Positions 22,889-58,306 are shown, numbered from the stretch's first letter. The stretch: DNA of 64,000 bases from Escherichia coli (GCF_044324875.1 NZ_CP172185.1); one strand, 5' to 3'. A program made the numbers and translations. Notes: generated by a model not told the origin, from the sequence alone.

Positions 22889-22917
22889 TAAAAAATCCCG
22901 CCGATGGCGGGATTTTT
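22889..22917 (-). terminator. Terminator after hns
   Basis: aatcccgcc...ggcgggatt hairpin with flanking A/T runs. Confidence 0.7.
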
Positions 22918-40834: not shown

Positions 40835-40864
40835 TCAAAAGCCTCCGACCGGAGGCTTTTGATT
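40835..40864. terminator. Bidirectional terminator between tonB and yciA
   Basis: aaaagcctccg-acc-ggaggctttt hairpin with A/T runs on both sides. Confidence 0.8.
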
Positions 40865-52236: not shown

Positions 52237-53118
52237 TTGAGCGACACGAATTACGCAGTGATTTACGACCTGCACAGCCATACCACAGCTTCCGATGGCT
52301 GCCTGACGCCAGAAGCATTGGTGCACCGTGCAGTCGAGATGCGCGTCGGCACCCTGGCGATCACCGACCATGACACCACAGCTGCAATCGCGCCAGCAAG
52401 AGAGGAAATTTCACGTTCGGGACTGGCGCTGAATCTTATTCCCGGCGTGGAAATTTCCACGGTCTGGGAAAATCATGAAATTCATATTGTCGGGCTGAAT
52501 ATTGATATTACTCATCCGCTAATGTGTGAGTTCCTCGCGCAGCAGACAGAACGGCGCAATCAGCGGGCGCAGCTGATTGCCGAAAGACTTGAAAAAGCGC
52601 AAATACCAGGTGCGCTGGAAGGCGCGCAACGACTGGCGCAGGGCGGTGCGGTGACGCGCGGTCATTTTGCGCGTTTCCTTGTGGAGTGCGGCAAAGCCAG
52701 TTCAATGGCGGATGTCTTTAAAAAATATCTGGCGCGCGGGAAAACCGGATACGTTCCGCCACAGTGGTGTACAATAGAACAAGCTATTGATGTCATTCAT
52801 CATTCTGGCGGTAAGGCGGTGCTAGCTCATCCTGGGCGGTACAATCTTAGTGCTAAATGGCTGAAAAGATTGGTTGCGCATTTTGCTGAACACCACGGCG
52901 ACGCGATGGAAGTCGCGCAGTGCCAGCAATCGCCCAATGAACGCACCCAGCTGGCGACACTTGCGCGTCAGCATCATTTATGGGCATCACAAGGATCTGA
53001 TTTTCATCAGCCATGCCCGTGGATCGAACTGGGTCGTAAACTCTGGCTGCCCGCAGGCGTTGAAGGCGTCTGGCAGCTATGGGAACAGCCGCAGAACACC
53101 ACAGAGAGGGAATTATGA
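52237..53118 (+). CDS. trpH: PHP-domain phosphoesterase TrpH (YciV)
   Basis: 293-aa ORF. Confidence 0.9.
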   Translation: MSDTNYAVIYDLHSHTTASDGCLTPEALVHRAVEMRVGTLAITDHDTTAAIAPAREEISRSGLALNLIPGVEISTVWENHEIHIVGLNIDITHPLMCEFLAQQTERRNQRAQLIAERLEKAQIPGALEGAQRLAQGGAVTRGHFARFLVECGKASSMADVFKKYLARGKTGYVPPQWCTIEQAIDVIHHSGGKAVLAHPGRYNLSAKWLKRLVAHFAEHHGDAMEVAQCQQSPNERTQLATLARQHHLWASQGSDFHQPCPWIELGRKLWLPAGVEGVWQLWEQPQNTTEREL

Positions 53119-53735
53119 GCCAGTTTTTTTATATTCATCCTGATAATCCGCAGCAACGTCTGATCAACCAAGCGGTGGAGATCGTGCGTAAAGGCGGGGT
53201 GATTGTTTATCCAACCGATTCCGGCTATGCGCTCGGCTGTAAAATTGAAGATAAAAACGCCATGGAGCGTATTTGTCGAATTCGCCAGCTGCCGGACGGT
53301 CACAACTTTACCCTGATGTGTCGCGATCTTTCTGAGCTCTCGACCTATTCATTCGTGGATAACGTTGCGTTTCGTTTGATGAAAAACAACACGCCGGGCA
53401 ACTACACCTTCATCCTGAAAGGGACGAAGGAGGTGCCACGCCGTCTGTTGCAGGAAAAACGCAAAACCATCGGTATGCGTGTGCCTTCTAACCCGATTGC
53501 GCAGGCGTTGCTTGAAGCACTGGGCGAACCGATGCTTTCCACTTCGCTAATGCTGCCAGGCAGCGAATTTACCGAATCCGATCCGGAAGAAATTAAAGAC
53601 CGTCTGGAAAAACAGGTGGACTTGATTATTCACGGCGGCTATCTCGGGCAGAAACCAACAACGGTTATTGATCTTACTGATGATACGCCGGTCGTGGTGC
53701 GTGAAGGCGTAGGTGATGTGAAGCCTTTCTTATAA
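53115..53735 (+). CDS. yciO: YrdC/Sua5-family protein YciO
   Basis: 206-aa ORF MSQFFYIHPDNPQQRLINQAVE; ATGA overlap with trpH stop. Confidence 0.9.
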   Translation: MSQFFYIHPDNPQQRLINQAVEIVRKGGVIVYPTDSGYALGCKIEDKNAMERICRIRQLPDGHNFTLMCRDLSELSTYSFVDNVAFRLMKNNTPGNYTFILKGTKEVPRRLLQEKRKTIGMRVPSNPIAQALLEALGEPMLSTSLMLPGSEFTESDPEEIKDRLEKQVDLIIHGGYLGQKPTTVIDLTDDTPVVVREGVGDVKPFL

Positions 53736-53762
53736 CAAATTGCGTTCCACGGATGGAAGACT

Positions 53763-55658
53763 ATGGCAGGGATATATCGCTGCATTTTGCTGTTGATAGT
53801 TGGGCTTTTTTTCTCTTCGTTGAGTTATCCGAAAAACACGGAGATCCCTTTTTATGAAGAAGGGATCTCGCTCTTTGATGTTGAAGCCACTCTGCAACCG
53901 GATGGGGTGCTCGACATCAAAGAAAATATTCATTTTCAGGCGCGAAATCAGCAGATTAAGCACGGATTTTATCGTGATTTACCACGACTCTGGATGCAGC
54001 CTGATGGGGACGCTGCACTGCTGAACTATCATATTGTTGGCGTCACCCGTGATGGTATTCCTGAACCCTGGCATCTTGACTGGCATATCGGGTTAATGAG
54101 TATTGTCGTGGGCGATAAACAACGTTTCTTGCCTCAAGGCGACTATCATTATCAAATTCATTATCAGGTTAAAAATGCTTTCCTGCGTGAGGGAGATTCA
54201 GATCTGTTAATCTGGAACGTGACTGGTAACCACTGGCCGTTTGAAATCTATAAGACCCGATTTTCACTCAAGTTCCCTGATATCGCGGGTAATCCATTTA
54301 GCGAAATCGATCTCTTTACTGGAGAAGAGGGCGACACATATCGAAATGGCCGCATCCTTGAGGACGGAAGAATTGAATCCCGCGATCCGTTTTATCGTGA
54401 AGATTTCACGGTACTCTACCGCTGGCCTCACGCTTTACTTAGCAATGCCCCGGCTCCACAAACGACGAATATTTTCAGCCATCTTCTTTTACCCTCCACG
54501 TCATCGTTGTTAATTTGGTTTCCGTGTCTATTCCTGGTTTGTGGATGGTTATATCTCTGGAAGCGCAGGCCGCAATTTACGCCGGTAGATGTGATTGAAA
54601 CCGATGTCATTCCGCCAGATTACACGCCCGGCATGTTACGTCTCGATGCGAAGCTGGTTTACGACGATAAAGGTTTTTGTGCCGATATCGTAAATCTGAT
54701 TGTGAAAGGCAAAATTCATCTGAAAGATCAGTATGACAAGAACCAGCAAATCCTGATTCGTGTTAATGAAGGCGCGACCAGAAATAATGCGGTATTACTG
54801 CCCGCAGAGAAGTTATTACTGGAAGCGTTATTTCGTAAAGGCGATAAGGTCGTTCTTACGGGGAGACGCAACAGAGTCTTACGCAGTGCATTTTTACGGA
54901 TGCAGAAATTTTATCTGCCGCGTAAAAAGTCTTCGTTTTACCGGCCTGATACGTTTTTGCAATGGGGCGGAATGGCGATATTGGCGGTCATTCTCTATGG
55001 TAACCTGAGTCCCGTAGGTTGGGCAGGAATGAGTCTGGTTGGCGATATGTTTATTATGATCTGCTGGCTTCTTCCTTTTTTATTTTGTTCCCTTGAGCTT
55101 TTGTTTGCCCGCGATGATGACAAGCCTTGCGTTAATCGTGTAATCATCACTTTGTTTTTACCGCTGATTTGTTCAGGCGTGGCCTTTTACTCTCTCTATA
55201 TCAATGTCGGAGATGTATTCTTTTACTGGTATATGCCAGCGGGTTATTTTAGCGCTGTTTTCCTGACCGGTTATCTCACTGGCATAGGGTATATTTTTCT
55301 GCCAAAGTTTACCCAAACTGGGCAGCAACGTTATGCCCACGGTGAAGCTATCGTTAACTATCTTGCGGGTAAAGAGGCAGCAACACACAGTGGGCGGCGG
55401 CGGAAAGGGGAAACACGGAAACTGGATTACGCGTTGTTAGGTTGGGCGGTCTCGGCAAACCTTGGCAGAGAATGGGCAGCACGTATCACCCCATCACTCA
55501 CAGCGGCTGTTCGCGCCCCGGAAATTGCCCGTAGTGGCGTTTTGTTCTCATTACAGATGCACCTGAGTCTGGGGGCCAATACCAGTTTGTTGGGGCGAAG
55601 TTATTCCGGTGGTGGTGCTGGCGGCGGGGCGGGTGGCGGAGGCGGTGGTGGCTGGTAA
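53763..55658 (+). CDS. yciQ: Membrane protein YciQ (DUF2207-like), Gly-rich C-terminus
   Basis: 631-aa ORF with multiple TM segments; ends in a Gly-rich tail. Confidence 0.85.
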   Translation: MAGIYRCILLLIVGLFFSSLSYPKNTEIPFYEEGISLFDVEATLQPDGVLDIKENIHFQARNQQIKHGFYRDLPRLWMQPDGDAALLNYHIVGVTRDGIPEPWHLDWHIGLMSIVVGDKQRFLPQGDYHYQIHYQVKNAFLREGDSDLLIWNVTGNHWPFEIYKTRFSLKFPDIAGNPFSEIDLFTGEEGDTYRNGRILEDGRIESRDPFYREDFTVLYRWPHALLSNAPAPQTTNIFSHLLLPSTSSLLIWFPCLFLVCGWLYLWKRRPQFTPVDVIETDVIPPDYTPGMLRLDAKLVYDDKGFCADIVNLIVKGKIHLKDQYDKNQQILIRVNEGATRNNAVLLPAEKLLLEALFRKGDKVVLTGRRNRVLRSAFLRMQKFYLPRKKSSFYRPDTFLQWGGMAILAVILYGNLSPVGWAGMSLVGDMFIMICWLLPFLFCSLELLFARDDDKPCVNRVIITLFLPLICSGVAFYSLYINVGDVFFYWYMPAGYFSAVFLTGYLTGIGYIFLPKFTQTGQQRYAHGEAIVNYLAGKEAATHSGRRRKGETRKLDYALLGWAVSANLGREWAARITPSLTAAVRAPEIARSGVLFSLQMHLSLGANTSLLGRSYSGGGAGGGAGGGGGGGW

Positions 55659-55868
55659 TTAAGCTGATGTTAATCGAAACAAGCTTTAACCATAAAGATA
55701 GTGTAGTATGTTGCGCCTCAAAGCCAGGCCGATAAACGTCGAGTCGTTTACTTAAGGCCTGAAGAGTTCAAACAGACTTTACTATCAGTGAGTCAGATGT
55801 AAGTTCTGACTCACTGTTGCACAAAAGCATATCAGACGCCTGGGAAGGCGACACCAAAAGGAAGCTCT

Positions 55869-56744
55869 ATGAGCGAAAAGCTACAGAAAGTGCTGGCGCG
55901 TGCCGGCCACGGCTCTCGCCGTGAAATCGAATCTATTATTGAAGCCGGTCGTGTGAGTGTTGATGGCAAAATTGCTAAACTCGGCGATCGCGTTGAAATT
56001 ACCCCTGGATTGAAAATCCGTATCGATGGTCACCTGATTTCGGTACGTGAGTCCGCTGAACAAATTTGTCGCGTTCTGGCCTATTACAAACCGGAAGGTG
56101 AGTTGTGTACCCGTAACGATCCGGAAGGGCGTCCAACGGTGTTTGACCGTCTGCCAAAGCTGCGTGGCGCACGCTGGATTGCCGTGGGTCGCCTGGACGT
56201 TAATACCTGTGGTCTGCTGCTGTTCACTACCGACGGTGAACTGGCAAACCGTTTAATGCATCCAAGCCGTGAAGTTGAACGTGAATATGCCGTGCGTGTA
56301 TTTGGTCAGGTTGACGACGCGAAACTGCGTGATTTGAGTCGTGGCGTGCAGCTGGAAGATGGTCCGGCAGCCTTTAAAACCATCAAGTTCAGCGGCGGCG
56401 AAGGGATCAACCAGTGGTACAACGTAACTCTGACCGAAGGCCGTAACCGTGAAGTTCGTCGTCTTTGGGAAGCGGTTGGTGTGCAGGTAAGCCGCCTGAT
56501 CCGTGTTCGTTACGGTGATATCCCACTGCCGAAAGGTCTGCCACGCGGTGGCTGGACGGAGCTGGACCTCGCCCAGACTAACTATCTACGCGAACTGGTG
56601 GAGCTACCGCCAGAAACCAGCTCTAAAGTCGCTGTAGAAAAAGACCGTCGTCGTATGAAGGCGAATCAGATTCGTCGAGCGGTTAAGCGTCACAGTCAGG
56701 TGAGCGGCGGTCGTCGTTCTGGTGGACGTAATAATAACGGTTAA
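55869..56744 (+). CDS. rluB: 23S rRNA pseudouridine(2605) synthase
   Basis: 291-aa ORF with S4 domain and Arg/Gly-rich tail. Confidence 0.95.
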
Positions 56745-58271: not shown

Positions 58272-58306
58272 AAAGCACCTCAAGAGGCGATCTTTTGAGG
58301 TGCTTT
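58272..58306. terminator. Hairpin between the insertion cassette and btuR (convergent)
   Basis: Perfect 12-bp inverted repeat aaagcacctcaa / ttgaggtgcttt with 11-nt loop. Confidence 0.5.

Follow-up and report, generated by a model that had tools for sequence, protein, structure and literature searches.

Several described systems resemble the locus treated here in one respect or another. Site-specific recombination targets carry short arms around a spacer, in a 13-8-13 layout in loxP and an 11-6-11 layout in dif. IS10 RNA-OUT is a cis-antisense RNA directed against the 5' end of the transposase mRNA. Of the two genes that flank the locus, yciQ has been described as a neutral site for integration and as belonging to the "extended-core" genes, and RluB binds the isolated helix-93 stem-loop of its target RNA, with seven Watson–Crick pairs, a 4-nt loop and a bulged A2602 (PMC3919597). 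The spacer between yciQ and rluB in Escherichia coli contains a perfect palindrome that is probably an RNA stem-loop of the rluB leader, inherited from the arm of an integrative island, formerly a terminator and now a structural element that is read through.

The window analyzed is a stretch of 64,000 nucleotides of E. coli DNA (GCF_044324875.1, NZ_CP172185.1), in which adding 1270983 to a coordinate gives that of NC_000913.3; the region is identical to E. coli K-12 MG1655 over the compared interval. Here yciO (53079–53735) is followed on the + strand by yciQ (53763–55658), which encodes a DUF2207 membrane protein, and by rluB (55869–56744), which encodes the 23S rRNA pseudouridine 2605 synthase. 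The yciQ–rluB spacer measures 210 bp (55659–55868), one less than the initial annotation had given. The inverted-repeat search returned exactly the perfect 12-bp repeat with a tgtaagt loop described there: the arms CAGTGAGTCAGA (55786–55797) and TCTGACTCACTG (55805–55816) are 12 nt each, 100% complementary and 7 nt apart, reading CAGTGAGTCAGA-TGTAAGT-TCTGACTCACTG as DNA. Its position upstream of rluB also holds, at 52 nt from the end of the right arm to the ATG (55869) instead of the approximately 55 bp first estimated.

As RNA, the palindrome forms a stem-loop (55786–55816, + strand) with a perfect 12-bp stem and a 7-nt UGUAAGU loop. In a 43-nt context, the same stem forms at -20.1 kcal/mol (z = -5.1), none of 200 dinucleotide shuffles folds as well, and the fold persists when the whole spacer is folded. 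Perfect 12-bp inverted repeats with loops of 3–20 nt occur four times in the window, against a mean of 0.1 in 30 Markov-1 shuffles. Chance is therefore no explanation for the hairpin. Of the other three repeats, two, at 22891–22917 and 40835–40862, are GC-rich with A-run and T-run flanks (AAAAATCCCGCC...GGCGGGATTTTT; TCAAAAGCCTCC...GGAGGCTTTTGA) and look like classical bidirectional intrinsic terminators; the palindrome upstream of rluB has no T-run. The remaining one (58272–58306, AAAGCACCTCAA-11 nt-TTGAGGTGCTTT) lies in the divergent yciK–sohB intergenic region, where its position fits a terminator of neither gene.

Several ready-made identities were considered and set aside. A REP-like repeat does not fit a palindrome that is single-copy, found in one place per genome in 3976 genomes and matched once in the 64-kb window by a covariance model. 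An AUG-UAA start-stop in the loop has no Shine–Dalgarno (SD) sequence, is missing from a diverged E. coli allele (L005) and falls in a part of the hairpin that is unconserved in homologs. Mimicry of helix 93 was considered twice: the palindrome shares GUGAG.CAG...GUUC with the helix in a different structural context, and the homologs lack it; a second hairpin closer to rluB (55835–55853) has a 4-nt G(U/G)GA loop and five to six pairs with an A.A mismatch, but no bulge, and an A at the U2605 equivalent. Rfam searches at permissive thresholds of the window region, of the corresponding arm of an island in E. coli EC93 and of a Yersinia leader gave only chance snoRNA and lncRNA matches.

The palindrome lies within a mapped transcript. 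The SMRT-Cappable-seq supplement (PMC6131387) lists, in M9 medium, a forward transcript from 1326700 to 1327761 that covers all of b1269, with 37 reads starting at 1326700 and 18 ending at the rluB terminator at 1327761. This start corresponds to window position 55717, 8 nt after a TAGTAT that is probably the -10 hexamer of the rluB promoter (55704–55709, + strand) and 69 nt upstream of the palindrome. The transcription-start mapping that had been proposed as a check is in this way already available, and it places the start upstream of the palindrome on transcripts that run through rluB. The resulting 5'UTR is 152 nt long (55717–55868, + strand) and holds a first hairpin, hp1, then the palindrome at +70 to +100, the GNRA hairpin at 55835–55853 and the SD sequence GGAAG (55860–55864). 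The promoter has no recognizable -35, was missed by a consensus promoter scan and has its start from one published dataset; the tables of Kim 2012 and of Cappable-seq 2016, in the versions consulted, have no entry for the palindrome locus. SMRT-Cappable-seq is also size-selected, so that short products are invisible to it.

hp1 (GCCAGGCC...GGCCUG, 55725–55761, + strand) folds with an inner AAACG/CGUUU stem. It is specific to the lineage of the K-12-type leader and is an insertion relative to the arms of intact islands; its inner part is missing in allele L005, and one part, TTTACTTAAG, is duplicated in 27 genomes, such as strain W13-16. Published data also place a second rluB-directed start in the 3' part of yciQ (window 55314; MG1655 1326297) and a Rho-dependent termination region within yciQ (window ~54275; MG1655 1325258), and most yciV–yciO transcripts end before yciQ. 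This pattern is consistent with poorly expressed foreign DNA.

Homologs of the hairpin were sought by reading the 130 nt upstream of rluB in all loci and folding the 75 nt before a universally conserved element. Hairpins of the same kind precede rluB in genera that range from Escherichia to Yersinia, Serratia and Pectobacterium, with copies in Leclercia, Kosakonia, Enterobacter, Cedecea, Erwinia mallotivora, Pluralibacter, Pseudocitrobacter, Shimwellia and five Yersinia species. They share a lower stem of the form (AU)CA(G/A)UGAGUU...AACU(C/U)(G/A/C)(U/C)UG(AU). From an alignment of 23 sequences, RNAalifold derived a common structure made up of a 9-bp stem and a GNRA hairpin whose 5 bp are invariant. 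In these sequences, which are related, the lower stem is paired in 92.7% of cells, with changes on both sides at seven of the nine pairs. None of 500 shuffles reached any of five covariation measures, and slid controls pair at 33–50%, although these statistics ignore kinship and the homologs share part of their phylogenetic history. Some of the covariation may also reflect different island lineages imported by recombination, not compensation in place. With scores of at least 57 bits, a covariance model built from the alignment recovers the hairpin and its neighboring core from 28 of 86 sources; the window has a single hit.

The pairing is also biased towards one strand. When each of 26 homologs was folded on both strands, the rluB-sense RNA was the more stable in 25 (mean difference 5.9 kcal/mol; Wilcoxon p = 1e-5); the Serratia and Pectobacterium copies have the same + strand advantage, and a Klebsiella relic has none. 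The distance from arm to arm varies from 7 to about 25 nt, with upper stems that are not conserved yet complementary, and stems reach 15–23 bp with internal loops in some homologs, for example in Yersinia. The 7-nt loop is unconserved, whereas the spacing between hairpin and core is constant at 17–18 nt. Variable arm distance, strand bias and compensatory changes together indicate a structure of the sense-strand RNA (or of a single strand) and not a duplex site with fixed spacing. The variants seen within E. coli change the loop (G>A), remove 3 nt from the 5' flank or, by a C>T in the right arm, replace a G-C pair with G.U. The diverged allele L005 reads CAGTGGGGCAGG-TGATAAA-TCTGCCCCACTG and keeps a perfect stem; it differs from the K-12 type by two compensatory pairs and one A-U>G-U change within a 189-nt context that is about 83% identical. 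From these comparisons, the pairing of the rluB-leader hairpin appears to have been conserved through compensatory changes on the sense strand.

Of the two possibilities first entertained for the palindrome, an RNA hairpin in the rluB leader has therefore gained from the mapped transcript, the compensatory changes and the better pairing on the rluB-sense strand. A protein-binding palindrome has lost ground through the variable arm distance, the strand-asymmetric pairing and a match of the E. coli arms to the core site of integration host factor (IHF) that is no better than in shuffles. An operator for a dimeric transcription factor that regulates rluB is one form of it, to which the perfect 12-7-12 symmetry downstream of a promoter would be suited. 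Such a site would be expected to have fixed half-site spacing and strand-symmetric conservation, but the spacing is unconserved and the alignment holds 27 G.U or U.G cells against a single C.A in the stem. The palindrome also sits far from the promoter, and the literature searched, in which subscription journals are thinly covered, has no paper on the rluB leader or its regulation, on yciQ–rluB or on rluB as an integration site. Taken together, this makes an operator highly improbable.

The distribution of the palindrome within the species is that of an indel. A 301-nt query around it is matched in full in 3976 of 5426 complete E. coli genomes (73%), and the remaining genomes match only from window position 55835 onward. 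In 1442 genomes (27%), yciQ is absent and the short allele yciO-100 bp-rluB is contiguous. The difference is a 2.1-kb segment consisting of yciQ and its flanks (53736–55834), bounded by the yciO stop codon (53735/53736) and by 55834/55835, which replaces a 66-bp yciO–rluB spacer of yciQ-less E. coli. At the equivalent position, the short spacer carries a hairpin of its own, AATGGCGC-TATACG-GCGCCATT (L001, L002). E. albertii, Citrobacter, Enterobacter and others have the short yciO–rluB spacer, the palindrome segment is absent from E. albertii, and no yciQ homolog was found beside rluB in 80 other Enterobacterales species; across genera, the yciO–rluB gap ranges from 83 bp to more than 8 kb. 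The conservation check suggested in the initial annotation consequently has a divided outcome, with homologous hairpins in a third of the sources and closest relatives that lack the whole segment instead of carrying a decayed palindrome. Taking absence from close relatives as refutation would misfire for this reason.

The source of the segment is suggested by what adjoins the hairpin elsewhere. In every case, the hairpin copies adjoin a gene for a tyrosine integrase of ~555 amino acids or its decayed remnant. In Kosakonia, Erwinia and a MAG, the sequence beside the hairpin reads on its opposite strand as ATGGTACACAGCATGGCAAAC, the start of such a tyrosine recombinase (PF00589). What looks like a promoter, TGACAT...GTACCATGAA, is in fact the integrase start MVHSMAN in reverse complement. 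Members of this integrase family occur widely in Enterobacterales, and in Serratia and Pectobacterium the gene is divergent from rluB and 111 nt away; the order int-hairpin-core-rluB is common to these two genera, Kosakonia and Erwinia. Seven E. coli genomes have a homologous integrase gene, at 64–84% DNA identity. Against a phage collection, the integrase gave only two remote matches at 27% identity, and the EC93 arm gave no DNA match.

Island junctions, read by eye, show how these elements are placed. In E. coli EC93, yciO and the short-allele spacer (module A) precede GACGCCTGTGAAGGCG and an 8.4-kb island, after whose int come the hairpin homolog, TTTTTGAAAGTATACCA, GACGCCTGTGAAGGCGAC, the SD sequence and rluB. 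The island genes encode YagK/YfjJ, DUF4238, a resolvase, a hypothetical protein and the integrase. A 16-bp core, GACGCCTGKGAAGGCG, is repeated directly at the two ends of this island, and it is the same element that stands before the rluB SD sequence in all 83 of 83 loci, from Escherichia to Yersinia, Erwinia and Serratia. In the window, it lies ~18 bp from the palindrome and corresponds to the proximal GNRA hairpin GACGCCUGGGAAGGCGACA (55835–55853, + strand), the att core of the island family, with five invariant pairs. As RNA, GACGCCUG(G/U)GAAGGCGACA forms five base pairs closed by a GNRA loop, with an A.A mismatch at the foot of the stem. Among the E. coli copies read, the loop is GGGA with yciQ and GUGA without it, and a Serratia island copy has a C>U change that gives a U.G pair. 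The core 16-mer also occurs in 72 IMG/VR loci, none with the hairpin, and these were treated as chance matches.

The core has been used more than once. In strain Z1323CEC0012, yciQ, an identical palindrome and the core come first; next is a prophage-like island of 13 kb, which brings its own int, hairpin and core before rluB. Strain 2017-03-3CC and K. pneumoniae have a second type of integrase at this core, ~551 amino acids long, 55–64% identical and oriented the other way, with the junction ...GACGCCTGGGAAGGC|CATAAATC (L090 13640–13760; L165 2900–3010). In these loci, the island separates a K-12-like relic of promoter, hairpin and core from rluB. The core is the island junction in both L089 and L090. 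The near-invariant GNRA hairpin before the rluB ribosome-binding site is an attachment site for at least two integrase types, and the K-12-type core, as these junctions suggest, still serves as an integration target.

The islands carry varied cargo, including T6SS Hcp and Tlde1 effector domains, RelA/SpoT-domain proteins, DUF4238 and YagK/YfjJ, as well as serine recombinases, an alpha/beta hydrolase and IS3 (L024, L039, L053, L087, L088, L166). A third kind of upstream module, ~100 nt upstream of rluB, has a strong consensus promoter, GGTTACA-N17-(G)TATAAT, followed by TAACTCATTGATTTTTAAG, a perfect minus-strand IHF core that resembles the right arm of the hairpin without the left arm (L032–L035, L045, L054, L055, L063, L065–L067, L078, L080, L081, L083).

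Decayed Int N-termini interrupted by stop codons lie upstream of the hairpin in int-less loci, among them those of five Yersinia species and L044, L068, L064, L024, L028, L038 and L040. In the int-less Yersinia, the integrase relic is decayed while the promoter block, the hairpin region and the core are conserved. In the window, the relic amounts to eight codons, GATYYTIF against GRTYYTNF of intact Int (55694–55717, minus strand), a match that is weak alone and is linked to the clearer relics in other genera through the multiple alignment. The block GTGTA(G/A)TATGT is invariant in 13 of 13 aligned intact and relic copies, and also in the five Yersinia species. It is the reverse complement of the Int codons T-Y-Y-T and contains the -10 hexamer that precedes the K-12 start, which places the K-12-type rluB promoter antisense to codons of the integrase relic. 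Of the two cores, the window retains the right-hand one alone, its left junction falls directly at the yciO stop codon, and a repeat search found no flanking direct repeats in L028, L024, L031 or the window. The segment 53736–55834 is read here as a degenerate integrative island; yciQ lies in its interior and may be original island cargo. On the minus strand at 55826–55834, next to the core and facing the hairpin and the lost integrase, is an extended -10-like TGATATGCT (TGGTATACT in island copies), a candidate int promoter; the start-site tables searched have no minus-strand entry there.

The association with an attachment core raises the possibility that the palindrome is a relic of att-arm DNA, with inverted sites for IHF and/or arm-type sites for Int, functionless in the window, and that the RNA hairpin is incidental. 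The hairpin does lie between int and the att core in intact islands, at the constant distance from the core already noted. Read in reverse complement, the right arm is a perfect match to the IHF core WATCAANNNNTTR in seven homologs; perfect matches occur in Yersinia, L043 and L070, and most island copies have a single mismatch. The left arm of the islands likewise has perfect IHF cores near the core. At the left ends of two island types, at L087 9407–9450 (AATCAATGAATTG) and L089 318–345 (AATCAATAAGTTA), perfect IHF cores lie at a distance of ~30 nt from the core, which would suit an attP arm. However, the arms of E. coli copies have two to three mismatches to the IHF core, and the two mismatches of the window arms are equaled by 122 of 200 shuffles. 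The variable arm distance with upper stems that remain complementary, and the strong bias of pairing towards the + strand, are likewise not what a pair of duplex sites would leave. Pairing is moreover kept or improved in int-less relics, as seen in the K-12 type compared with L005 and in the five Yersinia species. An att-arm relic, the main rival of the RNA reading, is on balance unlikely, though it retains some weight.

The stem-loop inherited from an island arm has a more specific antecedent in the copies that still adjoin an integrase. Beside an intact or recently truncated int, the stem is followed by TTGTTTTTGAAAG or close variants, which gives intact-island hairpins a tract of U5-6, and one copy (L039) was flagged as terminator-like on the + strand, where TTTTTGAAAG comes after 14 pairs. 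The hairpin of intact islands is most likely a leaky intrinsic terminator, or attenuator, of the outward transcript. In most int-less relics, the T-run is lost and the stem kept, with TTGCACAAAAG in the window, GCGATCCATAAG in L044, TTGATTACAATA in Yersinia and TTGATTAATAAA in L070; L029, L030 and L026 depart from this, as they lack int and still have TTGTTTTTGAAAG or a similar sequence. The window copy has TTGCACAAAAGC 3' of the stem, without a U-rich tract, which is eroded to UUGCAC; it was not flagged, the scan returning 0 terminators. Compared with canonical island copies, its stem has two wobbles turned into Watson–Crick pairs, one double change from U-A to C-G and added pairs, and it folds at -20 kcal/mol against -7 to -16 for island copies beside an intact or recently lost int. 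Full-length rluB transcripts pass the hairpin in E. coli. The E. coli Term-seq tables (PMC7815308) have no 3' end at the hairpin or elsewhere in the rluB 5'UTR; their entries for this region are the rluB terminator at 1327761 and the Rho-dependent site in yciQ.

These data also bear on the nearest upstream gene. The palindrome is 128 nt downstream of the yciQ stop codon on the same strand, where it could be a transcription terminator or 3' stabilizer of yciQ, but it has neither a T-run nor a Term-seq 3' end, the rluB start lies between yciQ and the hairpin, and homologs of the hairpin occur without yciQ. A function in yciQ termination was accordingly rejected, and the whole reading is barely credible.

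The leader hairpin could also be a neutral fossil of the island terminator, without present role and kept only because the relic is young. Of the palindrome-bearing genomes, 2634 of 3976 are identical over 65 nt and the E. coli copies are 95–100% identical, so recency alone could explain the perfection of the stem. Many genera and the yciQ-less 27% of E. coli express rluB without the hairpin, and no 3' end or processing site has been reported at it. This fits poorly, however, with the diverged allele L005, which keeps perfect pairing through double changes, and with the old Yersinia relics, which keep the hairpin while the int remnant decays. It also fits poorly with the K-12-type stem, which gained Watson–Crick pairs relative to island copies while the U-tract decayed. 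A fossil without function is a doubtful account, though it keeps some plausibility for E. coli taken by itself. If the hairpin does have a role, one candidate is a putative processing site for RNase III or another double-strand-specific enzyme that would set the 5' end or half-life of rluB mRNA. A perfect 12–13-bp stem in a leader, longer but interrupted in homologs, would be a suitable substrate; 12 base pairs are nevertheless short for RNase III in vivo, and processing of this kind is very unlikely.

The preferred reading, an island-derived stem-loop of the rluB leader, draws on what was observed of the hairpin (its transcription, homology, covariation and strand bias), on the junctions of the islands and on the eroded U-tract, and can be put as a sequence of steps. 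The islands would insert into the conserved 16–18-bp hairpin-forming site GACGCCTGKGAAGGCG just upstream of the rluB ribosome-binding site and in doing so sever rluB from its old promoter, so that the island arm has to supply a replacement promoter, the hairpin and the att core. This promoter would be antisense to the first ~25 integrase codons and be followed by the hairpin and then by the core. In the lineage of the window, the integrase would have been lost while promoter, hairpin and core remained; the U-tract would have eroded and the stem improved to 12 Watson–Crick pairs, with transcripts reading through into rluB. Termination would then belong to the intact islands, and in K-12-type strains, the hairpin would presumably still affect rluB expression as a cis-acting element of the leader, through RNA folding, pausing or stability rather than termination.

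The arrangement in intact islands allows a further, tentative suggestion. The promoter there would yield a transcript antisense to the int start that runs into the hairpin. Conceivably, the antisense promoter and the hairpin with its U-tract make a ~115-nt cis-antisense RNA over the integrase start that keeps the island quiescent, while leaky read-through supplies rluB mRNA. The K-12-type spacer would be a domesticated remnant of this switch, in which the antisense promoter has become the rluB promoter, the U-tract has been stripped and the stem tightened, and it may still release a stable, 5'UTR-derived RNA of ~100 nt. This extension is speculative and is put forward with low confidence. If true, the stability of the island would be wired to the transcription of the host gene it displaces.

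A previously unexplained symmetry in K-12 is now a transcribed, covarying leader hairpin with a traceable origin. In most E. coli, K-12 among them, this housekeeping rRNA-modification gene appears to have taken its promoter and leader from a decayed island arm, which makes the locus a clear natural case of a mobile element that provides replacement regulatory DNA to the gene beside its insertion. An island origin would also explain the dispensable, "extended-core" status of yciQ, and the locus offers a testable model for how the outward-facing terminators of islands evolve after domestication.

Compared with the systems it most resembles, the palindrome shares with REP/BIME and ERIC elements that it is an intergenic palindrome in E. 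coli, and it differs from them in being single-copy, without REP consensus and without an Rfam match. The 12-7-12 layout of the window copy recalls loxP, FRT and dif; here, the crossover lies in a separate core 18 bp away, and the 7-nt spacer is unconserved among homologs. Cis-antisense RNAs of the IS10 RNA-OUT type are approached more closely by the intact islands, in which a promoter antisense in the first int codons and a terminator-like hairpin beyond the int start would, combined, give a ~115-nt RNA complementary to the int translation start. In this case, however, no short RNA has been observed, the same transcript feeds rluB, and in the window the target gene is gone. Intrinsic terminators and attenuators have in common with the palindrome a sense-strand stem-loop between promoter and coding region, and the intact-island homologs share with them the U5-6 tract as well, found by the terminator scan. 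The window copy differs, with UUGCAC in place of the tract, no 3' end and read-through, and no antiterminator structure was found. The attP or attR arm of lambda-type tyrosine-recombinase elements offers the likeness of position, between int and a 16-bp core, with IHF-core-like sequence at a fixed distance; the feature conserved here is instead strand-specific pairing with variable spacing, which persists after the integrase is lost.
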